A DNA stretch of 64,000 nucleotides, taken from contig LCLP01000001.1 in the NCBI GenBank assembly GCA_001002135.1, positions 8,417 through 72,416 on the forward strand, read 5' to 3'. This document shows positions 6,411 to 59,732 of the stretch, piece after piece. The stretch is from Candidatus Pacebacteria bacterium GW2011_GWA1_46_10 (GTDB taxonomy: Bacteria > Patescibacteriota > Microgenomatia > UBA1400 > PJMF01). Position numbers and translations under genes: made by a program. How positions within the stretch are numbered: position 1 is the first letter of the stretch; each line of letters opens with the position of its first letter. The notes below the pieces were generated by a model, which was not told the DNA's origin, made no database searches, and saw nothing but the letters and a program-made list of their open reading frames with translations.

Positions 6411-6830
6411 TTAGATACCAGTTGATTCAGAGGAAGGAATTTTAAACTCTAAAATCGTCCTCACCCCAGTAAAATCAGCAATGAGATTGAGAATGATGAA
6501 CGCTGAGACCGCTACCACCAAGCCGATGATGGCGTAGGTAACTGAGTTTCTGCCTTTTTCCACCTGCTTGGTGTCGCCGCCGGAAACCAGTAATCGGAAA
6601 CTAGCGACGATCAACATGATAAAAGCAGTCACCCCAACCAAGGTGAGAAAAATCGACAGCACGTTGGCCAGCAAGCACTGTAAACCCTGGATAGTAGCCA
6701 CGGTTTCGTCAGTGGGACTAACACAGACCCCGCTCCATGGACTGGTTTGAGCAAAAACCGGAGAGACACTAGCGAGTTGGAGGCCGAGGAAAAAGAAAAC
6801 GATGGAGATGGTTTTACTCAGCAGTTTCAT
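6411..6830 (-). CDS. TrbC/VirB2-like T4SS pilin family protein, paralog 1 of 7
   Basis: Signal-peptide-like N-terminus, two TM helices flanking a conserved loop 'VSGGDTKQVEKGRNSVTYAIIGLVV'. Topology and size match conjugative pilins. Confidence 0.5.
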   Translation of the reverse strand: MKLLSKTISIVFFFLGLQLASVSPVFAQTSPWSGVCVSPTDETVATIQGLQCLLANVLSIFLTLVGVTAFIMLIVASFRLLVSGGDTKQVEKGRNSVTYAIIGLVVAVSAFIILNLIADFTGVRTILEFKIPSSESTGI

Positions 6831-6880
6831 GGCGTTGATTATACATAATCACTTATCTTTCATAAAAACTTCCTTTAACA

Positions 6881-6911
6881 AAAACCCCCGCCGGAAAAGA
6901 CGGGGGTTTTT
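6881..6911. terminator. bidirectional rho-independent terminator between pilin paralogs 1 and 2
   Basis: CCCCCG-(10 nt loop)-CGGGGG hairpin followed by TTTTT on the plus strand. The complement also forms a hairpin followed by a T-run, downstream of the minus-strand gene 6928..7329. Confidence 0.65.
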
Positions 6912-6927
6912 CGAGTTCCAGTTTTTT

Positions 6928-7329
6928 TTACCCATCGATGGTCCGAGTGTTAAACACTTCGTTCAAACCGCCGGAGAAGCCGAGGAAGTTCAACGCCAAA
7001 GTAAGGATGGCGTACGAAGCAGCGACGACGATCAGACCAATTACGGCCGAAGTAATTTTATTGCGTGCGCTCTCGGTTTTACCCTTATCTCCACCACTAG
7101 TGATCCATTCAATACCACCCCAGATGAGGTAAAGGAAAACTAATAAGGCGGCAATCACCATCACAAAACTTAAAACGCCATTGATGAGCTTCCCAAAGTC
7201 GGTGGCAAAACCTTGGCCGGGATCAACCGGTGTGTCAGTGATGCTTTCTGCGGCGACTGGCAGCGCGGCGGCCGCGAAACTGGCTACTGAAACGCTGGCT
7301 GAGAGGGCCAGTTTTTGCAGTTTATTCAT
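6928..7329 (-). CDS. TrbC/VirB2-like T4SS pilin family protein, paralog 2
   Basis: Signal peptide, then 'WITSGGDKGKTESARNKITSAVIGLIVVAASYAI' between two TM helices. Confidence 0.5.
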   Translation of the reverse strand: MNKLQKLALSASVSVASFAAAALPVAAESITDTPVDPGQGFATDFGKLINGVLSFVMVIAALLVFLYLIWGGIEWITSGGDKGKTESARNKITSAVIGLIVVAASYAILTLALNFLGFSGGLNEVFNTRTIDG

Positions 7330-7427
7330 AGTTCTCCTTTGTTACTTTTTGTTTCTTACTAACCTTAAGCTCGTATTATATCCATGTTTTGTTTTAAACG
7401 TCAAAAGCTTTCTGAGAGCAGTCTGTT

Positions 7428-7751
7428 TTAACAGCCACCGCCGAAGCTGAGAACACAAATATCCAATAGCTGTTGAATAATCATAAAGATAGCGGTTGAG
7501 GCAGCTAAAACAATCAGACCAGTGACGGCATTCATGATTTTGTTGCGCGCCCCCTCCACCTTGCTTTTATCACCCCCACTGGTGATCCACTCCACTGCTC
7601 CCCAGATAAGGTACAGCAAGACGAGTAGGGCGGCGATGGCCATCACGGCGCTCATCAGACCGCCCAGAAAAGAGCCAAAGTCACCGCCTGATCCTGGCAG
7701 ATCGGCTTGTTGCCCCGCTTCTTTTAGATCGATAGTAGTTGGTTCTGGCAT
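7428..7751 (-). CDS. TrbC/VirB2-like T4SS pilin family protein, paralog 3 (internal start chosen; the ORF is open to 7832)
   Basis: 'WITSGGDKSKVEGARNKIMNAVTGLIVLAAS' core. The longer ORF would overlap paralog 4 by 68 nt, so the Met at 7751 is preferred. Confidence 0.45.
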   Translation of the reverse strand: MPEPTTIDLKEAGQQADLPGSGGDFGSFLGGLMSAVMAIAALLVLLYLIWGAVEWITSGGDKSKVEGARNKIMNAVTGLIVLAASTAIFMIIQQLLDICVLSFGGGC

Positions 7752-7764
7752 ATGAGTGTAATTT

Positions 7765-8187
7765 TTATTCTGGCAATACGTCTGGTCTGGGTATGTCCAG
7801 GATACTAAAACTTTCTCCAAACAGTAAATCACTCAGGAAGTTAAGAATGACGAAAGTACCAACTAAGACAATTAAACCGATGACAGCTTGAGTGATCCGG
7901 TTGCGGGCATTTTCTAATTTTCCCTTGTCCCCGCCACTGACGATCCACTCGATTGCTCCCCAAATGAAAAGCACGATGGTAGCGATCGCGCCGATGGCCA
8001 GCATAGCCTTCCAGAGACCGACAAAGTAGTTGGCAAAGGCAGTACCTTCGTTAGCCAGTTCTGGGTCGGTGAGCTCTCCTTGCAATACTGGGTTTTTGAG
8101 CTGCGCCAGCGCTGTGCTGGTAGAGAAAAGCAAGAGCGAGAGGGTGGTTGAGGCGATGGTGGTAAGTTGGCGCAGCGATTTTTTCAT
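7765..8187 (-). CDS. TrbC/VirB2-like T4SS pilin family protein, paralog 4
   Basis: Signal peptide (ASTTLSLLLFSTSTALAQ) and 'WIVSGGDKGKLENARNRITQAVIGLIVLVGT' core. Confidence 0.5.
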   Translation of the reverse strand: MKKSLRQLTTIASTTLSLLLFSTSTALAQLKNPVLQGELTDPELANEGTAFANYFVGLWKAMLAIGAIATIVLFIWGAIEWIVSGGDKGKLENARNRITQAVIGLIVLVGTFVILNFLSDLLFGESFSILDIPRPDVLPE

Positions 8188-8194
8188 TCGATGA

Positions 8195-8605
8195 TTAAGT
8201 ACCCGGACTGAGGGGAGTGACTAGGTTTCTAATCTGGCCTGCTGGGTTGAGAAAGTCTAAGCCGATGATACCGCTCAGCAAACCAAGCAAACTGTATGAG
8301 GCGACGATGATAACCATGCCTAAAACGCCGTAGAGCATCCGGTTGCGGGCTTTCTCCAACTTACCTTTATCCCCACCACTAGTGATCCACTCGAAAGCGC
8401 CAAGAACGAAATAGACCACGAAAAAGAGTGAGGCCAACACGGTCATAAAGCCGATGAGATTGGAGATGAAGCTCTCTAAGTTTTCCAGCGCCGCCTCGCC
8501 AGTTTCGTCAGTACCCGATCTTTCACTAAAAGCGCTGGTGGGTGGGTCGAAGGTGCCAATATTGGTTGGTTGTTGAGCGATAAGAGAAAAAATATTGAGC
8601 ATCAC
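8195..8605 (-). CDS. TrbC/VirB2-like T4SS pilin family protein, paralog 5
   Basis: 'WITSGGDKGKLEKARNRMLYGVLGMVIIVAS' core between two TM helices. Confidence 0.5.
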   Translation of the reverse strand: MMLNIFSLIAQQPTNIGTFDPPTSAFSERSGTDETGEAALENLESFISNLIGFMTVLASLFFVVYFVLGAFEWITSGGDKGKLEKARNRMLYGVLGMVIIVASYSLLGLLSGIIGLDFLNPAGQIRNLVTPLSPGT

Positions 8606-9072
8606 CCACCCCCTATTACGGTAAAGCTGGGACTTAAAATGTACGTGGCGTCACCAAAAACCACTAGGCCGACGATCGCGGCCAGCGTATATGCTCCGAC
8701 GATCAAGGCAATGCCGACTAAACTGTAGGTCATTTTTTGAGAAGCTTCAGCGTGAGACTTGGCGTCACCAGTGGCGGTGATATATGTCCAACCAGCCAGA
8801 ATAAAATTGACCATCACCCACACCCCGGCGACAATCGTGCCAATCTTGATGATGTTGGAGAGAAACAAAATGAGGCCAATTTGTTCGCCGCTAGCGGCGT
8901 CGTATTTCTCTACTCCGGCGGGAGGACTGATGGTGCCAAAGATCTCATCAGTCTCACTACTTCCTTGGAGCCCCCCGCTGGCTCCACCCGGTTGGGCGAT
9001 CACGGCTTGAGCTTGGGCGGGGAAGATCGTGAAAAAGCAAACAGTCAGTGCCAGCGCAAAAAGTTTTTTCAT
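8602..9072 (-). CDS. divergent pilin-like two-TM protein, paralog 6
   Basis: Signal peptide (FFTIFPAQAQA), TM, 'ITATGDAKSHAEASQKMTYSLVGIALIVGAY', second TM. Same architecture with a weaker motif. 4-nt overlap with paralog 5. Confidence 0.4.
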   Translation of the reverse strand: MKKLFALALTVCFFTIFPAQAQAVIAQPGGASGGLQGSSETDEIFGTISPPAGVEKYDAASGEQIGLILFLSNIIKIGTIVAGVWVMVNFILAGWTYITATGDAKSHAEASQKMTYSLVGIALIVGAYTLAAIVGLVVFGDATYILSPSFTVIGGG

Positions 9073-9100
9073 GTATTTTAAGATTGTAGTATAGGTTTTC

Positions 9101-9442
9101 TTACAAGGGAATATCTGCCCCTGTGACTTGTTTAATAATCTGAACGACCCAGTACGCTATAAACATCACCACGATGCCTACTCCAGTCGTGAGCACGATT
9201 TTCATCGCTTCTTGAATACCCTTTTGTCCTTTGATCAAAAATTTATAGCCAGCCAGGATAACCATGATCATCACGGCAATGCCCGCGACTACAAATAGAT
9301 TTGGCACAATTAAGTTGACGAGAGTTGAGGGAGAAGTGTACACGTCTTTGACCGGCGTCCCGTCACTCAGGGTATAAGCACAGCCAAGTTCGAAGCCTGC
9401 TTCACTGCTGCCCGGGCTGGTGGCGCAACTACTTTCACTCAT
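9101..9442 (-). CDS. divergent pilin-like two-TM protein, paralog 7 (no obvious signal peptide)
   Basis: TM, 'KGQKGIQEAMKIVLTTGVGIVVMFIAYWV', TM. Same size class. First gene of the minus-strand array, divergent from the sigma factor gene. Confidence 0.35.
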   Translation of the reverse strand: MSESSCATSPGSSEAGFELGCAYTLSDGTPVKDVYTSPSTLVNLIVPNLFVVAGIAVMIMVILAGYKFLIKGQKGIQEAMKIVLTTGVGIVVMFIAYWVVQIIKQVTGADIPL

Positions 9443-19956: not shown

Positions 19957-20448
19957 GTGCGGCAGGCTAGTTTCTGGCAGCGGCTGGGTTTGAAAATCTT
20001 TGTTTTACTCTCTTACGTATCGTTATTTTTTTTCCTCATGCCGCTGAGTTGGCAACTGTTTTGGTTGGTGGTTGGGGTAGTGTGCGGAGTAGTTTTTTTA
20101 TTGGTTGATGAGTTAGTGGGCTTTCGTTGGTACCAAGAAAAGCCAGCAGACTCAACGTTGACCAAGCCGCGTTTTTTAGTTTCTCGTTCACCACTATTTC
20201 TGATTTCTTTGCCGCCGATCGCCCTCATGGTTTTCACCTCTTTTGGCAGTTTCTGGGCGACTGGAGTACTGGGTGGCATGATGTTGTGGTTGTTGTTGGA
20301 GATGGTGGAGTTACGCCGAGACAGTGTGGCATTTGACCGGCGATTTTTACCGACGATCAAAGGACAAGTTTCACCTCAACACATTCAGATGATTCTATTG
20401 AGTGGTTGGGCATTTTTTGTACTCCTACACTTATTGGTTATGATTTAA
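19957..20448 (+). CDS. hypothetical membrane protein (GTG start)
   Basis: Four hydrophobic segments. AGGAGA 6 nt upstream of the GTG. Confidence 0.45.
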   Translation: MRQASFWQRLGLKIFVLLSYVSLFFFLMPLSWQLFWLVVGVVCGVVFLLVDELVGFRWYQEKPADSTLTKPRFLVSRSPLFLISLPPIALMVFTSFGSFWATGVLGGMMLWLLLEMVELRRDSVAFDRRFLPTIKGQVSPQHIQMILLSGWAFFVLLHLLVMI

Positions 20449-20459
20449 GTTCGAAACGT

Positions 20460-21011
20460 ATGGAAGGAAAAGCTAATCAATTGGAAGAGGCAAGGCGCCA
20501 AGAAGTATTGGCGGAAATCGAGGATTGGAGAGCAAAGAACAAAAAAACAGATAGGCCATGGCAGAGCGAGCTAGCTAACTTTCACCTCCTATTACCTGAT
20601 CCTGAAAGTAGTTCAGGTAGTTTTATGACAGATCAATATGAAAGCATGGGTTTTCTAGATAGGCCACATGGCGAGTTCATAACTAATCCTGAGGAGAGAT
20701 CATTGCACAGTGAGCTATTTTTAGGACAAACCCCAAGAGAATTATTTCAAACGATTGACAATGTTATTAAAGACATCTCCTCCGTATCGCTGGTGGAAAT
20801 TCTGAAACTGGTGAGAGAAGAGCGCGCTTATGGAAATACTTTAAACGAGTCTTCTACTTCGTTTGTCGAAATGGATGACAATCACGAGTTAGAGCTTGAA
20901 GCAGCATTTGAAAGAAGTATTATCAAACTTAATGAGTTGAATATGTATGTTATGCCAATTTATATAGTTTTACGGGTGAAGGGTTACACTCATTATGATC
21001 TCACGTCGTAA
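20460..21011 (+). CDS. hypothetical soluble acidic protein
   Basis: ORF open from 20406; the internal Met (MEGKANQLEEARRQEV...) is preferred. No motif recognized. Confidence 0.35.
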   Translation: MEGKANQLEEARRQEVLAEIEDWRAKNKKTDRPWQSELANFHLLLPDPESSSGSFMTDQYESMGFLDRPHGEFITNPEERSLHSELFLGQTPRELFQTIDNVIKDISSVSLVEILKLVREERAYGNTLNESSTSFVEMDDNHELELEAAFERSIIKLNELNMYVMPIYIVLRVKGYTHYDLTS

Positions 21012-21462
21012 TGTTTTCTTTTGGTTAAAAATTATTTTAGGTGTTGGCATTGTTTTTTTATTCTTACTGTTGTTTTTAAGATTGAGAAATAATTTTTCTG
21101 ACCTACGTTCTTTTTCCGACCATTCAATCATTGCTTGGCAACTGGAAAACCAGCCGCTGAAAGTTGAGTTGGTCAACACTCCAGCAAGCATTACTCAGGG
21201 GTTGAGTGGGCGAACTGGACTAGATGGTATTGACGGTATGTTGTTTGTTTTTGACCAACCGGCTATTAGAACTTTTTGGATGAAAGGGATGGCAATGCCA
21301 ATCGATATTATTTGGCTTTACCAGGGAAAAGTTGTCGGTATCGAGCGTAATGTTCAGCCACCGCCTGAAGGGACTACAGACCAAGCATTAGAGCGATATC
21401 TGGCGCCACAGGTGGTGGACATGGTTTTGGAAACAGCACCTGGCAGGTTATCTTTACCTTAA
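20995..21462 (+). CDS. DUF192 (COG1430) family protein, N-terminally anchored
   Basis: 'LTQGLSGRTGLDGIDGMLFVFDQPAIRTFWMKGMAMPIDIIWL' matches the conserved core of DUF192. Confidence 0.7.
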   Translation: MISRRNVFFWLKIILGVGIVFLFLLLFLRLRNNFSDLRSFSDHSIIAWQLENQPLKVELVNTPASITQGLSGRTGLDGIDGMLFVFDQPAIRTFWMKGMAMPIDIIWLYQGKVVGIERNVQPPPEGTTDQALERYLAPQVVDMVLETAPGRLSLP

Positions 21463-21482
21463 CTCCCAGGCTCTTTTTTCTC

Positions 21483-22220
21483 TTGGGCAAACACAGTATT
21501 ATACGTACTGTGTCTGATACGCTTGCCCAACCGGCTACTGGCTTGGCTCATCGTCTAGTTGGTGACCCCAACTCGATGATTGGGGCGCTGATTAAGCGTG
21601 GCCTAACCGGTCAGGCAGTAACCTCTCAAGTTCAGCCTGGTGTTAATTCTTCTCCTCACGCAACTGCTCGCACAACTCCTGCTCTTGACACACTCGAACA
21701 AGTCTTGACTGAAGTAGAACAAACGAGTCAACAGCCGGTTGTCGACACGACAGGTGAAGGAGTGATGTCTCAGGTGATGCCGCAAGTGATGACACAGACT
21801 GCTGACTCACTTGATCCTCACAAACCGATGGTGGCCACCACGCAAAAAGAAAAAGTGGCGCCGGCGACTACCCTTGAACAGGTGGCGGTTGACGCGGTTG
21901 GCGGGGTGCAGCAAGTTGAAGTGGAACCCACGCCGGAGATCCCGCCGGAGGTTGAGAGCTATTTACAAAAAGTTGAGGAGCAACCAGAAACTGCTCCCAA
22001 AGAAATTGTGGTGGCCGATGGAATGCCAACCGCGCCAACCGATCACCAATACCCCGCCCAGCCCGTGGTAGTTTTGCCAATTACTCAAGCGGAAGAGCAG
22101 GCCGGCGCCAAGAAAAGTCCAAAGTTTAGTATTAGGTGGTTGGTGGAATGGAGTCGTAAGCTCATGAAAATGTTTGTGGGCAAAGTGATTTATCGGTCAG
22201 TGGAAGGGAGTGCTGCGTAA
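21483..22220 (+). CDS. low-complexity Pro/Gln/Val/Thr-rich protein with an amphipathic C-terminus, translationally coupled to the T4SS ATPase
   Basis: Disordered composition. The stop codon overlaps the start codon of the downstream ATPase (22220). Confidence 0.45.
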   Translation: MGKHSIIRTVSDTLAQPATGLAHRLVGDPNSMIGALIKRGLTGQAVTSQVQPGVNSSPHATARTTPALDTLEQVLTEVEQTSQQPVVDTTGEGVMSQVMPQVMTQTADSLDPHKPMVATTQKEKVAPATTLEQVAVDAVGGVQQVEVEPTPEIPPEVESYLQKVEEQPETAPKEIVVADGMPTAPTDHQYPAQPVVVLPITQAEEQAGAKKSPKFSIRWLVEWSRKLMKMFVGKVIYRSVEGSAA

Positions 22221-24556
22221 TGTTTTTGGAATCGCAGGGTTTTATCACCAGTGTTTCTTTGTTTTTTGCCAATCTTTTTTTATGGCTAGGGATGATTGGT
22301 GTCGCTCTGGTGCTTGGTTACCTGTTACTCCAATGGCTTAAGTATCGCAACCGCGAAGGGTATTCGCTAGATTTCGTGACACTGTTGGTACGCTTGCCGA
22401 AAGACAACGAAATTAAAGTTGACGCGGCCGAACAAATGTTTGCGGGGTTGTACGCCTTAAAACACCACGGCTTTTTCTCGTTTTTGAAGGCAGAGGAACT
22501 GATTAGTTTCGAAATTGTTGGTCTCAAAGAGGAGATTGCTTTCTATGTCAGTTGTCCAAGGAGAGTACGCGACTTGGTGGAAAAACAAATCCATGGTGCC
22601 TATCCTACCGCCGACATCAAAGAAACCGACGAGGTCAATATTTTCAGTGAAAAAGGCCGAGTGGCGTTTGCCTCACTGCGCCTTAAGCAGGCTAAATACT
22701 TGCCGGTTAAAACATATAAAGACTTGCCGACCGATGGTTTATCGCTGATCACGTCCGCTTTTTCCAAAATGGGCGACGGCGAAGGAGCGATTCTGCAAAT
22801 TCTGATTCACCCAGAGAGTCAAGGGTGGCAGCGCAAGGGCAGAAATTACATGAAGGAAGAGAAGAAACGTGAAGCCGACCCGCAAAAGGCTACCTATGGT
22901 CATGATCCCAAAGAAATGGAGGCTGTGACGACTAAGGTAGAAAAACCAGGCTTTCGAACCTCGATCAGAGTCGTGGTTTCCTCACCGCAAGTGGCAATGG
23001 CACAGTCGCACCTCAATAATATTGTGGGCGCTTTTTCGCAGTTTACTTCCGCGTATAACGAGTTTTGGCGCACGCGTTTCTATATCAAACATCTGTTTAT
23101 GGTTGATTTTATTTACCGCTACATGCCGCTTTTCGGCTGGCGGACATCGATTTTGAATACGGAAGAGTTGGCCACCATTTTTCACTTTCCCAACAAAACT
23201 GTTGAGACACACCATATCAAGTGGTTGATTGCCAAAAACGCACCGGCGCCCCACCAAGTTCCACAAGAAGGATTGTTCCTTGGTAAATCACTCTACCGAG
23301 GAGAGGTGCGCGAGGTGCACATGACTCTTAAAGACCGCCAACGCCATATGTACATTGTTGGGAAAACCGGCACTGGTAAATCAGAATTCTTGAAAGAAAT
23401 GGTCTTGCAGGATATTGCCAATGGTGAGGGGGTGTGTGCGGTGGATCCGCATGGCGAGTTTGTGGAAGAAGTGTTGCAGTTGATCCCACCGGAGCGCGCG
23501 GAGGATGTCATTTACTTTAACCCCTCTGACCTCACGCGGCCAATGGGGCTCAATATGATGGAGGCGGATACGGAAGAGCAAAAGCATTTTGTGGTCAGTT
23601 CAATTATTGGTTTGATGTACAAGCTGTATGATCCCCACCGCACCGGCATTATTGGGCCACGATTCGAGCACGCCATCCGGAATGCGATGTTGACCATTAT
23701 GTCCAAAGAAGGCTCGACATTTATCGAGCTGGTGCGGACCTTGACTGACCCCAAGTTTGTCGAGGAGATGCTGCCCTATGTCAAAGACCCGGTGGTGAAA
23801 CGATATTGGACCGATCAGATCGCCCAGACAAGCGATTTCCACAAGTCTGAAGTCTTGGACTACATTGTCTCCAAGTTTGGCCGCTTTGTAACCAACAAAA
23901 CCATGCGTAATATCATTGGTCAACCAAAGAGCGCCTTTAATTTCCGCAAAGCGATGGACGAGAAGAAGATTATTCTCTGTAACCTCTCCAAGGGTATCTT
24001 GGGTGAGGAAGACGCCAAGTTTCTTGGTTTGATCCTAGTACCAAAAGTCCTGACCGCGGCCATGAGTCGCCAGGATGTGCCGATGGATCAACGCACTGAC
24101 TTTTTCCTCTATGTCGACGAGTTTCAGAACTTTGCCACCGAGGATTTTGCCACTATCTTGTCAGAGGCCAGGAAATACAAGCTTAACCTAATTGTGGCTA
24201 ACCAGTTTATCGGCCAGATTGACGAAGAGGTCAAAAACGCGGTGTTTGGCAATGTTGGGACCATTATTTCTTTCCGAGTTGGTGTGACGGATGCCAATTT
24301 CCTTCAGCACGAGTTTACCCCAGTCTTCAACGAAACTGATCTAACCAACGTAGAGAAGTACCACGTTTACGTCAAGACGATCGTGAATAATGAGCCAATG
24401 CCTGCCTTCAGCATGTCGCTGGAGAAAGATATTGATGCCATCAAGGCCAAGATGAACCCCAAGTTGGCCGAGATGGTCAAGCAATTGTCCCGCTTAAAGT
24501 ACGGCAAGGACCGCGAGGTAGTGGAGGCAGAAATTCAGGTTCGGGCGCGGTTGTAA
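22220..24556 (+). CDS. type IV secretion system ATPase of the VirB4/VirD4 (TraC/TraG) P-loop superfamily, N-terminally membrane anchored
   Basis: Long N-terminal hydrophobic hairpin. Walker A 'VGKTGTGKSEFL', 'AVDPHGEF', Walker B 'FFLYVDEFQNFATEDFA', and a C-terminal 'GNVGTIISFRVG' region. 778 aa. Confidence 0.7.
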   Translation: MFLESQGFITSVSLFFANLFLWLGMIGVALVLGYLLLQWLKYRNREGYSLDFVTLLVRLPKDNEIKVDAAEQMFAGLYALKHHGFFSFLKAEELISFEIVGLKEEIAFYVSCPRRVRDLVEKQIHGAYPTADIKETDEVNIFSEKGRVAFASLRLKQAKYLPVKTYKDLPTDGLSLITSAFSKMGDGEGAILQILIHPESQGWQRKGRNYMKEEKKREADPQKATYGHDPKEMEAVTTKVEKPGFRTSIRVVVSSPQVAMAQSHLNNIVGAFSQFTSAYNEFWRTRFYIKHLFMVDFIYRYMPLFGWRTSILNTEELATIFHFPNKTVETHHIKWLIAKNAPAPHQVPQEGLFLGKSLYRGEVREVHMTLKDRQRHMYIVGKTGTGKSEFLKEMVLQDIANGEGVCAVDPHGEFVEEVLQLIPPERAEDVIYFNPSDLTRPMGLNMMEADTEEQKHFVVSSIIGLMYKLYDPHRTGIIGPRFEHAIRNAMLTIMSKEGSTFIELVRTLTDPKFVEEMLPYVKDPVVKRYWTDQIAQTSDFHKSEVLDYIVSKFGRFVTNKTMRNIIGQPKSAFNFRKAMDEKKIILCNLSKGILGEEDAKFLGLILVPKVLTAAMSRQDVPMDQRTDFFLYVDEFQNFATEDFATILSEARKYKLNLIVANQFIGQIDEEVKNAVFGNVGTIISFRVGVTDANFLQHEFTPVFNETDLTNVEKYHVYVKTIVNNEPMPAFSMSLEKDIDAIKAKMNPKLAEMVKQLSRLKYGKDREVVEAEIQVRARL

Positions 24557-31088: not shown

Positions 31089-31106
31089 TTTTTATCAGAA
31101 ACAGGG

Positions 31107-31180
31107 TGCGTGCGCTAGGACTCGAACCTAGAACCACCAAGGTATAAGCTTGGTGCTCTAACCAATTGAGCTACACACGC
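31107..31180 (-). tRNA. tRNA-Ile with anticodon UAU (reads AUA); CCA not encoded
   Basis: 74-nt cloverleaf with acceptor GCGUGUG/CGCACGC, D-arm GCUC-AAUUGGUUA-GAGC, anticodon stem CCAAG/CUUGG with loop CUUAUAC, T-arm CUAGG-UUCGAGU-CCUAG, discriminator A. Confidence 0.8.
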
Positions 31181-31265
31181 AGGTCAATTAAAAGTGAATA
31201 GTTAAAAGTTTATAGAGTCTATTAACTATTAACTATGGACTTATTGCTTGCCTTGGAATTATAGC

Positions 31266-33863: not shown

Positions 33864-34099
33864 AGAAAGTATAATTTTCTTCTAAGCTAAAATAGTACGC
33901 TATTTGCTAGAGTTTAGTAAAGAGTTAATTAATAGCGCTCACCAGCCCAAATTTGTTTTAATCAGTGTAAGCTGCAACTAACCTCTTATTGACTGGACAG
34001 CTGGTGCTGTTGGCCAAGGCCGACGGGGTTAATCATAAAGTGTGAATGCTTGCGTTGTTTACTACAGCTGTGCGATAGTTTCAAAGTTATGATGGGGTT

Positions 34100-34774
34100 A
34101 TGCAACTAAACTTATTAAAATTTAAAGTTTTGTCAAATTTTGCTTTTCTGCCTTGGGTAAAACGGAGCTTTATTTTTTTACGTCTCGCCAGTTGTCCGTT
34201 TATGGAGTTGATAACTTACCTACCAAAGAAAGGCAAGTTACTTGATGTTGGCACTGGGTTCGGATTATTGCCTTTATTACTTAAACAGCACAACTCCCAA
34301 TTGCAAATTATTGGTATTGATCCAGATGCCGAGCGCATTAAGCTGGCTCGGCAAGCCAATCAAAATCTTAGTAATTTTCAGTTTCAAGTAGGCACAGTAC
34401 TAGATCTAGACTTGCGACAAACTTTTACAGTCGCAACCTTGGTGGATGTTTTGTACTTACTTCCCCAAAGCGAAAAAATAAAAACCATTCAAGCAGTGTA
34501 TCGATTACTTGAACCAAATAGTTTGTTAGTCATCAAAATCAATGACAAATCTTTTAGTCTCAGCTATTTTTTCACTTGGTTGCAAGAAAAAATGACGGTA
34601 CAGATTTTTAAGGAAACCACTACCAATTTCCCTGGTTTATATTTTGAAAATGCGGCGGAAGTGAGCGAACTGTTGGAAAACAATGGTTTCCAAGTACAAA
34701 AAAGGGTGAAACTTAAAACTCCGTTCCCCTTTTTCCACCCGCATTGGTTAGTGGTTGCACAAAAGAAAAACTAA
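34100..34774 (+). CDS. class I SAM-dependent methyltransferase
   Basis: Motif I 'LLDVGTGFGLLPLLL', motif post-I 'IIGIDPD', motif II-like 'FTVATLVDVLYLL'. Confidence 0.75.
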   Translation: MQLNLLKFKVLSNFAFLPWVKRSFIFLRLASCPFMELITYLPKKGKLLDVGTGFGLLPLLLKQHNSQLQIIGIDPDAERIKLARQANQNLSNFQFQVGTVLDLDLRQTFTVATLVDVLYLLPQSEKIKTIQAVYRLLEPNSLLVIKINDKSFSLSYFFTWLQEKMTVQIFKETTTNFPGLYFENAAEVSELLENNGFQVQKRVKLKTPFPFFHPHWLVVAQKKN

Positions 34775-34785
34775 TAACATGAGTT

Positions 34786-36339
34786 TTACCGAACATTCAT
34801 TACCAAAATCGGCGTTTGGAAAGAACCGATGGTTTTTTCCAAAATGAAGGTCTCGCCGTAATAGTTTCGATTAATTTTTTCCTCAAAACTAGTAAAGCAG
34901 TCATTGATGGAAAAATTGCTGTTTACCTGATGACAAATTACGTACAGAGTAACCAAGTTAGTTTTCGATCGGCGGGTAGCTTTGCTGGTTTCAGGATCAA
35001 TATCCACCAGATATTCTCCAGTCAATTTTTCCAAATTGTACCAGTAATAAGAGGTTTCCCAACCATAAGGGTCGTAGTGACTGATGGCTAACAGGTCAAT
35101 ATCAGTAAGAGGCAATTGTTTTTGATGGGCGTCATTTAAGATTCCTGTGGCTGCTTGACGAGCAGCGGTGATAGTGGATGCGCCCGTCAGTCTCATACTA
35201 GTCAAATTAGTTTTAAGTAAAAATGCTGATAAAAAAATAATTGCTATGACAAAAACTGTGTTTTTTAATTGACCCAATAATGCACTCAACCAGAGTAATA
35301 AAAAGGGAGTGACAACCAATAAATAAGCGCGCGAAAATATGGGAAGTGTTTCCTGAATTAAAATAGCTATCAAAACGGCAGGCAGGAAGCTGAAAAGAAA
35401 TAGTAAAATTATTCCCTTGCTATGAGCTTTTAGGGTTTTGTTGAAATTTGCCAATACTGCGGCACTGATAAAAAAAGCGAAGAAAATGATGTCGTTTTTA
35501 GTTTCTGAAGATGGGAAATAAAGAAACACTTGCTTGAGGCTCAGAGTTAATCGTTCACCTAATTTCGAAGTAGCTATGGCTGTCTGTGACTGCTGATAAT
35601 ACTGGCCGATTATTTGAAATCTGGCCCAGTCATATTTCACTTCGACTAATAAAATGGGCAAATAAATTGCCACTGCCCCTAAAGTGAAGATAATTATTGC
35701 TCTGATTGGTTTAGCGAGATTTTTTAATTCACGAACAAAAAGAATAGCCTTGAGGGGTATGAGTAGGTACATGGGTGGATAAAACTGGGTAGCTAGTAAA
35801 CTGATGAGAACGGCACTGATAAAAAAATTTTCTCTTTTACCTTGCTTGAAAAGGGCGAATAAATAGAGAGCAATTGTGTCAAAAAAAATGGCAATAACAG
35901 GTTGTGAGGCCCAAGTGGAAGTGTAGAGCATGGTGGGCAAAAAAAGGGCTAAGACGAGGACAGCCATGCCAGTTTTTTGATTGAAGAAGATGCAAGCTAT
36001 CCGATAAAGAAAATAAGCTTGTAATAAATTAATGACAGTAAAAATCAAAATATATCCTTCTGGAGTTTGTAGTCCAATGAGATAAATTAAAGTTAGAAAA
36101 TAGTATCCCAATGGCGAGTTATGTAAGAGGTATTTATCGTCAGTATCTAAAGCACTAATTTCTCCCAACTCTGGAAATTTACCATATTTAATCAGGCGTT
36201 CCGCCGTCAGTAGTTGCACTCCCTCATCTCCGGCAATTGTTTCGAAATGGCTCCAATTGATTAATCTAAAAACAGCGCCGATTAAAAAAAACAGCCCGAT
36301 AATTATTAAAGTTTTGTTTTTTAAAATAATTTTTACCAT
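34786..36339 (-). CDS. GT-C fold glycosyltransferase, PMT/ArnT-like (GT39/GT83 family, PMT_2-type)
   Basis: About 12 TM segments. A conserved acidic 'AGDEG' motif in the first extracytoplasmic loop (the DE motif of the PMT/ArnT family). 517 aa. Confidence 0.6.
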   Translation of the reverse strand: MVKIILKNKTLIIIGLFFLIGAVFRLINWSHFETIAGDEGVQLLTAERLIKYGKFPELGEISALDTDDKYLLHNSPLGYYFLTLIYLIGLQTPEGYILIFTVINLLQAYFLYRIACIFFNQKTGMAVLVLALFLPTMLYTSTWASQPVIAIFFDTIALYLFALFKQGKRENFFISAVLISLLATQFYPPMYLLIPLKAILFVRELKNLAKPIRAIIIFTLGAVAIYLPILLVEVKYDWARFQIIGQYYQQSQTAIATSKLGERLTLSLKQVFLYFPSSETKNDIIFFAFFISAAVLANFNKTLKAHSKGIILLFLFSFLPAVLIAILIQETLPIFSRAYLLVVTPFLLLWLSALLGQLKNTVFVIAIIFLSAFLLKTNLTSMRLTGASTITAARQAATGILNDAHQKQLPLTDIDLLAISHYDPYGWETSYYWYNLEKLTGEYLVDIDPETSKATRRSKTNLVTLYVICHQVNSNFSINDCFTSFEEKINRNYYGETFILEKTIGSFQTPILVMNVR

Positions 36340-36363
36340 TTAGAGGATTCTCGCTCACTAATT

Positions 36364-37473
36364 TTATTGCTGTTTGATTAAATTAAGCACACTCAAACAG
36401 TCTTCTAAATTACCAGCATAGCAGTCATAACGATATTGATATTGAACAATGCTAAGTAAAATAATGATGGCCCAAAAAACCATTGGTTTTTTTATAAATA
36501 CTTGCAGTAGGGCCAAAAAAAGCAAGTAAAAAACTGGCAAAATCGGCAGGATATGTCTGGGCAAGAGGTAACCAAGTTTAGTTATCATCAGTAGAGTTGG
36601 TAACGATACAGCACCCAAAACCAATGCTAGGGTGATCACTTCTTTAATGGTTTTGATAAGTTTCTTACTAAACATTAACATTACAACACTAGAACCAGAA
36701 ATGAGATACCGTCCCTGACGGACAGTGATATAAGTAATGGCGTCCCACAGACTTTGCCATGGTTGCTCGTCATAAAATCTTTCTGGTGAGTAAACCCACC
36801 AACCGGCAATCGATGCGTGTATGTATAACCAGACTACAGTCATAACAGGTAGCGGTGAAATATAACGTATTAACCAAGAGAGTTTGTTTGTGATGCCTTT
36901 TTCCAAAAATAAATAAACTCCGGCTGCTAGGGTAATAAAAAGTGCGTTGTCAACTCTGAATAAAATAGCCAAGATAGCAATTAAAGTGAAGCTAAAATAT
37001 TTTTTCTTGATTAAAAAAATGACACTTAAAAAACGCAGAGCAGCCCCAACGATCTCAAAATAAACGAGATGAGTTTGAGCTATAAAAAGCGGATTGGTGA
37101 GAAATAAAACTACCAAAGCCTGGCCAATTTTTTTACTGGCTATACTTTTGCCCAAAAAATACATCACCACCAGGAAAAACAGCGATAAAAATAAACTTAA
37201 TAAATGAATAAAAAAGAGATGATTAGTGGTTAGTTTGATAATAAAAGCGATTATCAACGGCAATAAAAAAGTATGAGGATAATCGCTGCCACCAAAGTAT
37301 GAAAAAAGATTGCCAGTTTGAGCAATAGCATAACCTGCAGGGACCAGAAACCAGGCAGTGTCCCAGTAGAAAGGGAGAGAAAAGCTTTTTTTAGTTGACA
37401 AGAGTAAAACAATTGTTACCCCCAACCAAAAAAGCATATCCTGCCAACTAACTTTTTTAGTTGTTTTAGTCAT
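36364..37473 (-). CDS. polytopic membrane protein, probable second GT-C-like glycosyltransferase (start uncertain; ORF open to 37506)
   Basis: 10 or more TM segments, 'WDTAWF' in the first loop. Operon partner of the PMT/ArnT-like gene and the GT2-YdjC fusion. Confidence 0.4.
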   Translation of the reverse strand: MTKTTKKVSWQDMLFWLGVTIVLLLSTKKSFSLPFYWDTAWFLVPAGYAIAQTGNLFSYFGGSDYPHTFLLPLIIAFIIKLTTNHLFFIHLLSLFLSLFFLVVMYFLGKSIASKKIGQALVVLFLTNPLFIAQTHLVYFEIVGAALRFLSVIFLIKKKYFSFTLIAILAILFRVDNALFITLAAGVYLFLEKGITNKLSWLIRYISPLPVMTVVWLYIHASIAGWWVYSPERFYDEQPWQSLWDAITYITVRQGRYLISGSSVVMLMFSKKLIKTIKEVITLALVLGAVSLPTLLMITKLGYLLPRHILPILPVFYLLFLALLQVFIKKPMVFWAIIILLSIVQYQYRYDCYAGNLEDCLSVLNLIKQQ

Positions 37474-38845
37474 ATAAACTTCCCGGATGAGTAATTTGAA
37501 CATCAAAGAATAATTTAGATTTTTGTTTGGGATGTATAAGCAACAGTTGTTTCAAGTTCAGTAGTGTTTGTAGCAACAAAAAAGGTAAATACTTTTGTGG
37601 CCGCAAACGAAGGTAGTTGGTAGTAGAACTTGTACCCCTAATTTGGACTTGATGCTGAGCCGCCATTTCTTCCACTATTTGCTTGATTGGAAAAAAGGTG
37701 TGAAGGTGTTGCTCTGAATCTAGGTAATTGACAGCAAAGCCCAATTTTTTTAAATATTTGAACTGGTTAGTAAATTCTAGCTTTACTTCGGTCAGCTTTA
37801 CTTGTCCAAAAAAAAGCTTAGTTAATAAAACTGGCAAAGAAAAAAAGTTCCCTTGCTGGTCTATTAGGGAACTGACCAATTTTTGTATAGTGATAGGCTT
37901 TCCTCTGGTTAAATTGAGATGAAGACCGATCTTGACTGATCGTTGGTAAGCAAGCAATTTTCGACTATCTATTGTGGAAACAAGATTTACTAAAACGGAC
38001 ACACCAGTCAGATTTTTAGCGGCCGCTTGATCAATTACAGCCTCATTAACAACTGACGATAAACCATAATCATCAGCAATAACTGGTAGACGGCTTAATT
38101 GATTGTTTGAATTATTAGATAAATAACCGCCGAGTTTAAAGGTGATTATTCTCCATAAATCAATGAGTGTGAGTCGAACTCTTCGCCAAGAAGTATAACG
38201 AGTTGGTCGCAATTCCCTCACAACAACAGGAACCTCCTGGAGACTTTGTTTTTGTTGGCAAAGCTTTAACAGTAATTCTGTATCCAGCAGCTCATGTTTG
38301 ACGGAGCACGCTCTTAAAGTTTTTATCAGAGCTGGAGTACTACGAAATGCTTTTAAACCATGAGTGTCTGTACCGGGGTATGAAAATAACATCTTGAGCG
38401 ATTGATGAAAAATTTTGGTTTGAATTTGGCGAAGTAATCCACGGTGGTCTTGGCTTTCACGTAATGTTTTTGAGCCTACCACGATTTCGTATTTATCGAG
38501 CAATTTTTTTGCCTGGGAAATGAAATTCGAATTGAAAAAATCAATATTTAAGACATAGATTTTTTGGCCTAAAGCGCTCAAAATCCCGTGTTTAAGAGCT
38601 TGGCCATAAGAAGCCTGACTAATGCGCAAATTACGTAAACCAGGATATTTTTTAGCGAGCCTTTGCATAGTTGCCCAGGTTTGATCAGTGCTGCCGTTTT
38701 CGATTAGTAACACTTCAAATTGAGTAAAATAGTTTTTTTCTAATAACTGGTAAAAAAGCTTTAATTGAGGGGAGAGATAAGAAGCTTCATTATAAACAGG
38801 AAATATAAAGCTATGTCGAACTGAGGAATGGACATTGTTACTCAT
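37466..38845 (-). CDS. bifunctional fusion: N-terminal family 2 glycosyltransferase, C-terminal YdjC/ChbG-like carbohydrate deacetylase
   Basis: GT2 'SFIFPVYNEASYL...LLIENGSTDQT'. YdjC-type 'SRLPVIADDYGLSSVVNEAVIDQAAAKNLTGVSVLVNLVST' starting around residue 235. Confidence 0.7.
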   Translation of the reverse strand: MSNNVHSSVRHSFIFPVYNEASYLSPQLKLFYQLLEKNYFTQFEVLLIENGSTDQTWATMQRLAKKYPGLRNLRISQASYGQALKHGILSALGQKIYVLNIDFFNSNFISQAKKLLDKYEIVVGSKTLRESQDHRGLLRQIQTKIFHQSLKMLFSYPGTDTHGLKAFRSTPALIKTLRACSVKHELLDTELLLKLCQQKQSLQEVPVVVRELRPTRYTSWRRVRLTLIDLWRIITFKLGGYLSNNSNNQLSRLPVIADDYGLSSVVNEAVIDQAAAKNLTGVSVLVNLVSTIDSRKLLAYQRSVKIGLHLNLTRGKPITIQKLVSSLIDQQGNFFSLPVLLTKLFFGQVKLTEVKLEFTNQFKYLKKLGFAVNYLDSEQHLHTFFPIKQIVEEMAAQHQVQIRGTSSTTNYLRLRPQKYLPFLLLQTLLNLKQLLLIHPKQKSKLFFDVQITHPGSLYD

Positions 38846-38906
38846 GAATGAGTGTTATCATAGTTTTTGAAACTATCAAGGTCAATTAAATAGAATCTGG
38901 GAGGAA

Positions 38907-41444: not shown

Positions 41445-41452
41445 TTTTAAAT

Positions 41453-42220
41453 TCAAGCTTTTTCCGAATCTTTTTTGTAGAGCTCTATTACTTCTATTCC
41501 ACCGTCTTCAACGACCTTTCCTTGCTCTAGCCAAATAATTCTTGTGCAGTTATTTTTAAGATAATCTAGCCAATGGCTGACACTAACAATAGTTTTTCCT
41601 TGTTTAAAAAAACTGTTAATTTTTTTTAAAGATTTTTCTCTAAACTCTTGATCGCCAACAGCGATCGCTTCATCTAGCAGTAAAATATCTGGATTAGAGT
41701 GTACGGCGATAGAAAATCCTAACCGAAGAGACATACCAGAAGAGTAGGTATAGAGCGGCGAATCGATAAATTTTTTTAGACCACTAAACTGAACAATTTG
41801 TGTGAAATTTTGTTCTATTTCTTCTTTTGCCATACCAATTATCAAGCCGTTCAAAAAAATATTCTCTTCACCGGTGAGTTCTGGGTGAAAACCAGCTTCT
41901 AGTTCAATCAAAGAAACTACTTTGCCTTTAACCACTACTTTGCCTGAATCAGGAGTAGCAATTCCAGCGGCGATTTTCAACAAAGTAGTTTTACCGGAGC
42001 CGTTGGGACCAATAATGCCAACTTTCTCCCCCTGGGAAATGGTGAGAGAGATACCACGTAACGCCTGAAATCTTTCTCTAGATTCCAAGCCAAATAGTGT
42101 CCCTACTAGGGTAGGTTTTTGGTGTTTTAAGGTATAACTTTTGGCTACGTTTTGGAACTGGATAGCTGCTTGGCGGTTGGTAGATTGGGAGACACTCTTT
42201 TTTTTCATCACTACATCCAA
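41453..42220 (-). CDS. ABC transporter ATP-binding protein, TagH/Wzt-like (teichoic acid / polysaccharide exporter)
   Basis: Walker A 'GIIGPNGSGKTTLLKI', signature 'YSSGMSLRLGFSIAVH', Walker B 'LLLDEAIAVGDQEF'. Pattern typical of ABC-2 polysaccharide exporters. Confidence 0.85.
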   Translation of the reverse strand: MDVVMKKKSVSQSTNRQAAIQFQNVAKSYTLKHQKPTLVGTLFGLESRERFQALRGISLTISQGEKVGIIGPNGSGKTTLLKIAAGIATPDSGKVVVKGKVVSLIELEAGFHPELTGEENIFLNGLIIGMAKEEIEQNFTQIVQFSGLKKFIDSPLYTYSSGMSLRLGFSIAVHSNPDILLLDEAIAVGDQEFREKSLKKINSFFKQGKTIVSVSHWLDYLKNNCTRIIWLEQGKVVEDGGIEVIELYKKDSEKA

Positions 42221-56415: not shown

Positions 56416-56489
56416 GGGCCCTTAGCTCAGTTGGCTAGAGCGCTACATTTGCAATGTAGAGGTCAAGGGTTCGAGCCCCTTAGGGTCCA
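56416..56489 (+). tRNA. tRNA-Ala (anticodon UGC)
   Basis: 74-nt cloverleaf. Acceptor GGGCCCU/AGGGUCC with the G3:U70 Ala identity pair. Anticodon loop UUUGCAA, T-loop UUCGAGC, discriminator A. Confidence 0.9.
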
Positions 56490-56647
56490 CAGGATTCTAG
56501 GGCTGTTTGTTATTCGTTCTCTGGCAACCTCACCGGGTTGTGCTGAGAGCGAACAACAAGCAGCTCACACTGTTTGACGCTCCTTAAAAAGTGAAGAGAA
56601 TTGTCATTTGAAATAGATACATTCGTCGAGAATGAAAATTATTTCGC

Positions 56648-59513
<2,866 letters not shown>

Positions 59514-59614
59514 GAAATTTTGTTCTTTGACGCATGTAATTACAAGATGACAAACACTCTTCACTTTTTAGGGAGCGAAAGCTCTTTTAAATATCTTTTA
59601 AAAAAAGCGTTTTA

Positions 59615-59732
59615 TTCTGGTCTCTAGAGCGAGGTGGTACCAACTCTTCCCATCCCGAACAGAGTCTTGAAACGCCTCAGCGCTGACAATAGTTTTCCCT
59701 TGTTGGAAAGCGAAGATAGGTCGAGGCCAGAA
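59615..59732 (+). rRNA. rrf: 5S ribosomal RNA
   Basis: 'CCCATCCCGAACAGAG...GAAAC' loop motifs. Helix I pairing between the 5' TTCTGGTC and 3' GGCCAGAA ends. About 118 nt. Confidence 0.8.

Follow-up and report, generated by a model that had tools for sequence, protein, structure and literature searches.

A VirB4/VirD4-clade ATPase with a membrane anchor and a small upstream partner in Patescibacteria: a candidate unlinked motor of type IV secretion

Coupling proteins of the VirD4/TrwB/TraD type (T4CPs) combine an N-terminal membrane anchor, usually of two transmembrane (TM) helices, with a motor of the FtsK/HerA superfamily that carries a Walker A and a DE Walker B motif and accommodates an all-alpha domain. 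The VirB4/TrwK/TraC ATPases join an N-terminal domain to a RecA-type C-terminal domain, and VirB4 is encoded within the T4SS cluster together with VirB3, VirB6 and VirB8. Patescibacteria possess a separate, bona fide VirB4, such as SEML1_0008 in Southlakia, where the T4SS is essential and a coupling protein has not been recognised in it. Arrays of VirB2-like pilins have been described in Microgenomatia, the pilins within an array being divergent (~25% identity), and exaptation of t4cp genes has been raised in the same study (PMC12102498).

Here, we analysed a window of 64,000 nucleotides from a Candidatus Pacebacteria genome, in which a 778-aa ATPase (22220-24556, plus strand) directly follows a small partner gene. 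The two overlapping genes form a conserved module, which we tentatively interpret, with a probability of about 45%, as a coupling or energising ATPase that serves the patescibacterial T4SS from an unlinked locus.

Sequence and predicted structure of the ATPase

The ATPase is identical to the GenBank hypothetical protein DIV47_00590 from a Candidatus Pacebacteria MAG. Its domains are ordered DUF8128, TrwB_AAD_bind/DUF87 and TraG-D_C, and the precomputed annotation of this exact match and of all close homologues lists PF26449, PF10412 and PF01935. With a DUF8128 (PF26449) N-domain followed by a P-loop motor in a protein of ~780 aa, it belongs to the DUF8128 patescibacterial ATPase family. The catalytic motifs are intact in the 778-aa translation: GKTGTGKS at residues 381-388, DPHGE at 409-413 and VDEFQNF at 632-638.

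The TrwB_AAD_bind model of Pfam matched at 33.2 bits (cutoff 20.5) and TraG-D_C marginally, at 22.2 bits (cutoff 22.0); in other family members TrwB_AAD_bind reached up to 72.5 bits, and T4SS-DNA_transf was also matched. A profile search of PDB sequences matched TrwB and DotL (E 2e-6), whereas no VirB4 chain was retrieved with the ATPase at E ≤ 10. The VirB4 models gave no PF03135 (CagE_TrbE_VirB) match and only a sub-threshold AAA_10 score (16.3 bits, cutoff 27.5). PGAP and CONJScan-type searches assigned the T4CP label, with the NCBIfam T4CP equivalogs remaining far under their cutoffs (SXT_TraD, 47.4 vs 366; conju_CD1115, 38.7 vs 250). Judged by sequence, the ATPase is a member of the T4SS ATPase clade rather than FtsK or HerA, as had been proposed in a preliminary description of this DNA. 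A best match to FtsK/SpoIIIE or HerA, which that description had named as evidence against its proposal, was not obtained: among solved structures, TrwB and DotL, both coupling proteins, come closest to the ATPase in sequence.

We examined the domain plan in an AlphaFold model (pLDDT 83.4). The TM hairpin claimed previously is instead a single anchor: hydropathy peaks in one hydrophobic stretch (residues 8-39), the model has one continuous helix at residues 3-42 (22226..22345, plus strand), and each homologue likewise contains one such stretch. An alpha/beta domain follows at residues 52-320 (22373..23179, plus strand), corresponding to DUF8128 and closing with an invariant ELATxFHFPN motif; its predicted structure resembles the VirB4 N-terminal fold with moderate TM-scores of 0.41-0.49. 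The TM segment ahead of this domain may recall the arrangement of VirB3-VirB4 fusions. The RecA-type motor occupies residues 350-735 (23267..24424, plus strand) and includes Walker A (GKTGTGKS, 23360-23383), a helical insert (residues 452-580, 23573-23959) and Walker B (FLYVDE, 24104-24121), all on the plus strand. A C-terminal helical tail in the model (residues 738-777; 24431..24550, plus strand) is moderately conserved (0.33 identity among diverse homologues) and is replaced in saccharibacterial orthologues by an extension of ~240 residues.

The choice between VirB4 and VirD4, which the preliminary description had left undecided, thus has a mixed answer: the ATPase is a hybrid with a VirB4-like domain plan and a VirD4-like motor sequence, and is not simply one or the other. 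It shares with T4CPs the membrane anchor, the superfamily motor with both Walker motifs (the B motif in its DE form), and a helical insert where their all-alpha domain sits. Unlike them, it is anchored by a single TM helix where two are usual, interposes ~270 residues of VirB4-like N-domain between anchor and motor, lacks an adjoining relaxase or T4SS gene, and is chromosomal, apparently vertically inherited and conserved far above the rest of its neighbourhood. With VirB4/TrwK/TraC it shares the two-domain plan of an N-terminal domain and a RecA-type C-terminal domain, but its sequence gives no detectable hit with VirB4 models and it is encoded outside a T4SS cluster.

The partner gene and the surrounding locus

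The ORFs and motifs described previously are real, as is the proposed geometry of translational coupling. At the junction (22202..22222, plus strand), an SD-like GGAAGGGAG (22202-22210) precedes the sequence TAATG, in which the partner stop (22218-22220) and the ATPase ATG (22220-22222) overlap by one base. An identical 1-nt overlap is present in one related locus (L004), with short gaps or overlaps elsewhere. The partner had been described as a 245-aa protein, which holds for the longest ORF (TTG start, 21483-22220, plus strand); however, the start is most likely the GTG at 21510, giving 236 aa (21510..22220, plus strand), since its product begins MSDT... and thereby agrees with homologous proteins at the N-terminus.

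The partner was matched by none of the Pfam, NCBIfam and PADLOC models. We identified 225 homologues, many of which share contigs with ATPase homologues. The earlier view of a simply disordered protein does not hold: the N-terminal two thirds are low-complexity and variable in sequence and length, but the last ~100 residues (21915..22217, plus strand) are strongly conserved and contain all 18 invariant columns in an alignment of 20 homologues. This C-terminal module comprises an acidic helix (EVESYLQKVE), strands (EIVVADG and PVVVLPIT) and, at 22122-22175, an amphipathic helix that is basic and rich in Trp (KFSIRWLVEWSRKLMKMF); the hydrophobic moment of the protein peaks within this module (0.62). 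It is homologous to the products of upstream genes across Microgenomatia (hhalign 99.6%). Most loci have a small same-strand ORF directly upstream of the ATPase, and recognisable partner families cover ~50 of the loci. We regard the partner as a conserved adaptor-like protein and not merely a disordered one.

Upstream of the partner lies, as claimed, a DUF192 gene (155 aa, 20995-21462, plus strand; PF02643, E 1.9e-21), but it adjoins the ATPase locus only in the six closest loci (L001-L006); its linkage is clade-specific and the gene falls outside the conserved module. A 201-aa ORF (20406-21011), which the preliminary description had placed in the locus, had no Pfam match and no homologue among the related loci.

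Seven paralogous VirB2-like T4SS_pilin ORFs (6411..9442, minus strand) form the array that had been noted at a distance of 12 kb; it lies ~11.5 kb upstream of the ATPase locus, and five of its members pass PF18895 whereas all seven match a family HMM. Apart from the window, pilin arrays occur near the ATPase in just one Dojkabacteria-like clade (L037, L041 and L046), which is about the level expected by chance. The array may belong to the same pathway, but its linkage to the ATPase does not exceed chance. A Pfam scan of the ~57 larger ORFs of the window found housekeeping, transport and polysaccharide genes and no relaxase, integrase, VirB4 or VirB6. This agrees with the earlier assignment to a chromosomal region free of mobile-element genes. 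By contrast, the suggestion of a minimal T4SS split between the pilin array and the ATPase operon was not upheld: VirB4, VirB6 and other core genes are absent from the window, the proximity of the pilins is near chance, and a second FtsK/HerA-type ATPase, VirB4 included, was found within 10 kb of the ATPase gene in none of 80 related loci.

Distribution of the family and its apparent counterparts in Southlakia

At E ≤ 1e-30 the family has 5,763 representatives, with matches in at least 600 species genomes. The best 80 loci span Microgenomatia, Dojkabacteria, WWE3, Saccharibacteria and Parcubacteria-type lineages, and the family tree has three large clades that mirror major lineages; the family looks vertically inherited across Patescibacteria. 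The ATPase is 80% identical to that of L001, as compared with 39-64% for the enzyme and transporter neighbours that the two loci share, and is under extreme purifying selection.

Saccharibacterial ATPases share ~40% identity with the window protein and follow a partner gene of a different sequence family. Their loci run YifB (minus), partner (~139 aa), ATPase (~1020 aa), a 190-aa gene (minus), DUF11 (minus) and GyrB, an order that, together with the gene sizes, reproduces SEML1_0138 to SEML1_0145 of Southlakia epibionticum ML1. From this synteny and from gene size, SEML1_0142 is the apparent counterpart of the ATPase and SEML1_0141 that of the partner. The pair resembles that of the window in having a small gene ahead of the ATPase, as in Saccharibacteria loci of the same family, and SEML1_0142 has a P-loop domain from about residue 381, preceded by ~300 residues without an assigned domain; ATPases of its type differ in their ~40% identity and the C-terminal extension.

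In Southlakia, the only species tested, SEML1_0142 was called ES/ES/ES, class I essential at T0, and SEML1_0141 GD/ES/ES, essential with zero insertions (Wang et al. 2023, PMC10633639, Tables S1, S2). In that study the family of SEML1_0142 was flagged as core and Patescibacteria-enriched, and the pair is absent from the main text.

A second T4CP-like paralogue, of the SEML1_0293 type, occurs in L045, L048 and L054, where the second copies score 800-860 bits against the family HMM. It is of similar length and of the same overall family, but it forms a separate clade in the tree and follows a sigma-like or HARE-HTH gene rather than a small partner. This copy is non-essential in Southlakia (PMC10633639) and is probably the one called non-essential in PMC12102498.

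A proposed T4SS role and its alternatives

In the T4SS reading, the ATPase would be a membrane-anchored and presumably hexameric motor of the VirB4/VirD4 clade, built from one TM helix, a domain like the VirB4 N-terminus, and a RecA motor with its motifs and helical insert. The small cytoplasmic partner would probably dock on the ATPase or the membrane through its amphipathic C-terminal module, from which the variable acidic linker would project. Together they would work with a T4SS-like machine of VirB3/4/6/8 and VirB2-like pilins encoded elsewhere, and ATP would drive a macromolecule, protein or DNA, through it at the site of host-cell contact. Such a role would not be conjugation, as had been suggested before and in line with PMC12102498. 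In favour of this reading are the clade assignment, the core-gene distribution, the upstream partner and the essentiality in Southlakia; moreover, the essential Southlakia T4SS has no recognised coupling protein, and of 5,713 T4CP homologues in Patescibacteria only 148 are found close to virB4. Against it stand the lack of genetic linkage to T4SS genes (80 loci, 10 kb), the class I call for SEML1_0142 versus class II for most T4SS genes, a conservation far above what the divergent pilins would lead one to expect, and the VirB4-like N-domain, which canonical coupling proteins lack.

Ranked second, and nearly as likely, is a housekeeping translocase independent of the T4SS: in the ancestor of Patescibacteria, a VirB4/VirD4-type ATPase of ancient origin would have been exapted to an essential membrane-associated task of its own. 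It could act at the membrane on DNA, either chromosomal or incoming, or extract or insert envelope proteins, with the partner as its adaptor. The gene never adjoins T4SS genes (0/80 loci) and is conserved at the level of a core gene, and such exaptation has been raised for t4cp genes (PMC12102498). T4CP homologues were present in 2,918 of 3,035 assemblies (96%) versus 2,417 (80%) for VirB4, so a T4SS may be missing from some genomes that retain T4CP homologues. In Southlakia the apparent counterpart falls into class I, like DnaG, RpoD and GyrB, whereas most T4SS genes, including the VirB4 gene SEML1_0008, are class II (PMC10633639); however, this timing class varies with gene length and insertion density. 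Recurrent neighbours also have DNA- or division-related functions (XerC/D-like recombinase in 18 loci, DivIC in 15, DnaX in 11 and GyrB in 9), but they vary by class, are mostly on the opposite strand or kilobases away, and may merely reflect a core gene among core genes. A DNA-binding or other substrate-specific domain was not found in the ATPase, and its closest characterised relatives all function within T4SSs.

More doubtful is the idea of a third, hitherto unrecognised class of T4SS-type ATPase, core and essential in all Patescibacteria, that would combine a VirB4-like N-domain, a VirD4-like motor and a TM anchor, would always be accompanied by a small adaptor, and would move host-derived macromolecules across the single membrane of the episymbiont. 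If true, its cargo could be, for example, host DNA as a nucleotide source, or effectors, and the absence of a coupling protein as well as the essentiality of a T4SS in these organisms would be accounted for.

That the ATPase substitutes for FtsK/SpoIIIE or HerA in chromosome segregation, dimer resolution or DNA end processing is improbable. These proteins share the superfamily and the generic DUF87 P-loop region with the ATPase, DUF87 (the HerA central domain) scoring 34 bits, level with TrwB_AAD_bind, and many loci of Microgenomatia have the XerC/D-like recombinase and DivIC downstream of the ATPase. However, FtsK_SpoIIIE (PF01580) scored 18.2 bits, under its cutoff of 24, the ATPase has no FtsK gamma domain, four-TM FtsK N-terminus or HAS barrel, and no NurA-like neighbour was found in the window or the related loci. 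The VirB4-like N-domain and a separate, canonical four-domain FtsK in Southlakia (SEML1_0096), itself essential, largely refute this role.

Finally, a mobile-element remnant or cargo, or a defence ATPase of the HerA/DndH/MADS type, as might be read from the PGAP name 'type IV secretory system conjugative DNA transfer family protein' and from weak PADLOC matches confined to the ATPase (mad8 at 56 bits; HerA; DndH) with none among its neighbours, is refuted for practical purposes, given a window free of relaxase, integrase and mad, dnd or other defence partner genes, a GC content equal to that of the flanks, conserved housekeeping synteny, a tree that mirrors the major lineages, the extreme purifying selection, and the essentiality of the apparent Southlakia counterpart.

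Locus organization and domain architecture of the ATPase

The 778-aa ATPase is encoded at 22220-24556 (+) and is identical in sequence to the GenBank hypothetical protein DIV47_00590 from a Candidatus Pacebacteria MAG. Its translation includes GKTGTGKS, DPHGE and VDEFQNF at the positions given in the preliminary description of this locus. The small gene directly upstream encodes the partner protein (ORF of 245 aa, 21483-22220, +) and is itself preceded, as had also been noted, by a DUF192 gene (155 aa, 20995-21462, +; PF02643, E 1.9e-21). Partner and ATPase genes meet at a TAATG junction that lies nine bases downstream of an SD-like GGAAGGGAG, making the suggested translational coupling of the two plausible. 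The GC content of the locus is that of its flanks, and a promoter and terminator scan gave no signal above shuffled expectation. An additional 201-aa ORF at 20406-21011 (+) had no Pfam match and no homologue in the related loci; it is possibly specific to this lineage, or no gene at all. The gene for prolipoprotein diacylglyceryl transferase (LGT) occupies its position in close relatives.

By sequence, the ATPase groups with coupling proteins of the VirD4/TrwB/TraD type (T4CPs). TrwB_AAD_bind, DUF87 and TraG-D_C scored above their Pfam thresholds and FtsK_SpoIIIE below its own; the NCBIfam equivalogs were all far under cutoff, with T4CP models ranking top. In a sequence search of solved structures, the only clear matches were TrwB and DotL, HerA was weaker, and VirB4 and FtsK were absent. 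More distant family members matched TrwB_AAD_bind at 68-72 bits and, in addition, T4SS-DNA_transf. The assignment to the T4SS clade thus stood, since the best match was neither FtsK nor HerA.

We then considered predicted structures, whose underlying homologues share at least 52% identity. The full-length AlphaFold model of the ATPase had a pLDDT of 83.4, and behind the top of its fold comparison came DptH (26.8), TrwB (26.3), HerA (23.5) and DotL (23.4), with FtsK and TcpA near 15. The protein begins with a single TM helix, and not with the hairpin initially proposed. Between this helix and the motor lies an N-domain of about 270 residues, corresponding to Pfam DUF8128 (PF26449), an entry for which our literature search found no papers. 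When the N-domain was modelled separately (pLDDT 87, pTM 0.86), every one of the top 13 Foldseek matches was a TrwK/VirB4 chain (E 8e-8 to 6e-5, TM 0.41-0.49), although the similarity is distant, at 7-10% identity. The predicted architecture of the ATPase thus joins an N-domain of VirB4 type to a motor of T4CP type, and the question of whether it is VirB4 or VirD4 is answered by a hybrid, VirB4-like in domain plan and VirD4-like in motor sequence.

Conservation of the ATPase and its partner

A search of 1.84 billion representatives with the ATPase returned 5,763 cluster representatives at E <= 1e-30, and a scan in which one genome represented each species found matches in at least 600 species genomes. 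The best 80 of these at least 600 loci came from Microgenomatia, Dojkabacteria, WWE3, Saccharibacteria, Berkelbacteria and several Parcubacteria-type lineages, with 38-88% identity over the full length. In a neighbour-joining tree, the family formed three large clades that match major lineages, which suggests vertical inheritance, and a second paralogue formed a clade of its own. The ATPase shares 80% identity with its orthologue at L001, one of the related loci, and the remaining sizeable genes common to both are far less conserved, with 51% for DNA ligase, 43% for Pth, 39% for GH3, 42% for DUF192, 56% for MacB and 64% for an ABC ATPase. Among diverse homologues, conservation was highest in the motor and its helical insert (about 0.5 identity, against 0.34 for the N-domain). 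The invariant positions included Walker A, the DE of Walker B and further catalytic residues. These comparisons show that the ATPase is under very strong constraint.

In most loci, the ATPase start coincides with, or lies close to, the end of a small ORF on the same strand. For the partner encoded here, our preferred start is the GTG at 21510, which is most likely the true one and gives 236 aa. The protein had been described as disordered, but its variable low-complexity region is followed by a C-terminal module, about 100 residues long, that is strongly conserved. The upstream ORFs of this clade and across Microgenomatia are homologous (hhalign 99.6%) and have in common an acidic helix, a strand (...V.LP.T...) and an amphipathic helix that is basic and rich in Trp. 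The Parcubacteria-type partner belongs to a different conserved family (...WLK.IPGVNKFFLEQEAKIKTDKI...), and the Saccharibacteria partner to a third (...DLIEKEWV.KAK...DPY...LKADYLKKRY...). No homology among the three families was detectable; hhalign of the Microgenomatia type against either of the others gave nothing, with probabilities below 1%, leaving a common ancestry of all upstream partners without support. The three may be analogous, or may have become too divergent for a relationship to be detected, and the conserved trait is thus not one sequence family but a small upstream gene whose product varies in its N-part and is helical in its C-part. The analysis characterizes the ATPase as a membrane-anchored T4SS-clade enzyme with intact catalytic motifs and a dedicated small partner. 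We infer that the ATPase forms a hexamer and that the partner docks via its C-terminal module.

The wider neighbourhood differs among lineages. DUF192 adjoins the ATPase locus only in the six closest loci (L001-L006), and for this reason we rejected it as a functional partner. In many other Microgenomatia and in Dojkabacteria (within L007-L034, L037, L040 and L046), a tyrosine recombinase of XerC/D type, encoded on the opposite strand, lies downstream (18 loci) and a DivIC/FtsB-like gene beyond it (15 loci), for example at 13139 and 14045 in L008; this arrangement is absent from the window. DnaX is found downstream in Parcubacteria-type loci and GyrB in Saccharibacteria. None of the 80 loci carries a second FtsK/HerA-type ATPase within 10 kb. 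The second paralogue occurs at L045 (3587-6163), L048 (15684-18611) and L054 (13972-17193), directly following a sigma70_r4/HARE-HTH gene in each.

Apparent Southlakia counterparts and proposed function of the ATPase

The Saccharibacteria loci read YifB(-), partner (about 139 aa), ATPase (about 1020 aa), a 190-aa gene(-), DUF11(-) (about 537 aa) and GyrB, and SEML1_0138 to SEML1_0145 of Southlakia epibionticum ML1 follow the same order, strand and size. From this synteny, SEML1_0142 appears to be the Southlakia member of this ATPase family. Wang et al. (PMC10633639) list SEML1_0142 in their Tn-seq table as one of the 61 genes of essentiality class I; its 9-11 tolerated insertions would be expected to fall in the C-terminal extension specific to that lineage. 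SEML1_0141 is scored GD/ES/ES with zero insertions recovered; the main text of that study mentions neither gene and states that no coupling protein could be recognised in the Se T4SS. Literature and synteny together thus indicate that the apparent orthologue of the ATPase is essential in Southlakia. The other T4CP-like gene, SEML1_0293, is non-essential (PMC10633639) and lies beside a sigma factor (SEML1_0294), the same arrangement as that of the second paralogue in the related loci.

The role of the essential T4SS of Patescibacteria, which form a large share of bacterial diversity, is still unsettled (PMC11665869). A survey of 3,035 assemblies found 5,713 T4CP homologues in 2,918 of them, 148 near virB4, and VirB4 in 2,417; such homologues are viewed as possibly exapted, and the ML1 t4cp is treated as non-essential (PMC12102498). 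That statement fits SEML1_0293 only, SEML1_0142 being class I essential. We tentatively propose, with a probability of roughly 0.45, that the ATPase would serve as an unlinked coupling or energising ATPase of a patescibacterial T4SS-like machine. The main rival, an essential translocase independent of any T4SS, is a serious if less probable explanation: four observations favour it, namely an ATPase gene without linkage to T4SS genes, a distribution wider than that of VirB4, conservation at the level of core genes, and class I essentiality, whereas most Southlakia T4SS genes are class II (PMC10633639). Readings as an FtsK or HerA equivalent, a mobile-element enzyme or a defence component are largely excluded; the defence reading was rejected, and FtsK replacement was rejected given the FtsK_SpoIIIE and FtsK fold scores and the separate, essential, canonical four-domain FtsK of Southlakia (SEML1_0096; PMC10633639).

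Patescibacterial T4CP homologues, pilin arrays and DUF8128 as a Pfam entry are already known. In the searchable literature, we found no report of the split into an essential and a non-essential family, and no description of the VirB4-like N-domain, the widespread upstream partner or the degree of ATPase conservation. The two paralogue families can now be told apart, the one studied here apparently being that of SEML1_0142, whose small companion gene is also essential; the ATPase now has a concrete predicted architecture. The question becomes a specific one, a patescibacterial T4SS coupling motor versus an independent essential translocase, for which SEML1_0141 and SEML1_0142 offer a defined pair of Southlakia targets to study by depletion, pull-down and cryo-ET.

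The pilin array and other features of the window

The pilin array that had been paired with the ATPase as the other half of a minimal T4SS is real and comprises seven VirB2-like paralogues at 6411-9442 (-). The seventh (8602-9072, -) is missed by Pfam T4SS_pilin and scores 146 bits against an HMM of the whole array, in which it was itself among the training sequences. The array lies 11.5 kb from the ATPase, and arrays within 10 kb occur only in L037, L041 and L046, which belong to one clade; such proximity is about what chance would give, and we rejected it as an argument for linkage. A Pfam scan of about 57 larger ORFs in the window identified housekeeping, transport and polysaccharide genes and no relaxase, integrase, VirB4 or VirB6, in line with the reported lack of relaxase and integrase genes.

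A tRNA-Ala(TGC), a full 23S rRNA (56649-59512) and a 5S rRNA (59616-59732) lie together at 56416-59732. Within the window, protein genes and no 16S gene are found upstream of the 23S-5S pair, from which the 16S therefore appears unlinked. A tRNA-Ile at 31104-31181 (-) has the anticodon TAT (UAU), the less common means of reading AUA codons. Finally, a block at 34000-42000 has a GC content of 35-38%, compared with about 47% elsewhere; it carries glycosyltransferase, PMT_2, YdjC and nucleotidyltransferase genes within a larger polysaccharide cluster at 34-54 kb and could represent a surface-glycan island that is variable or was acquired.
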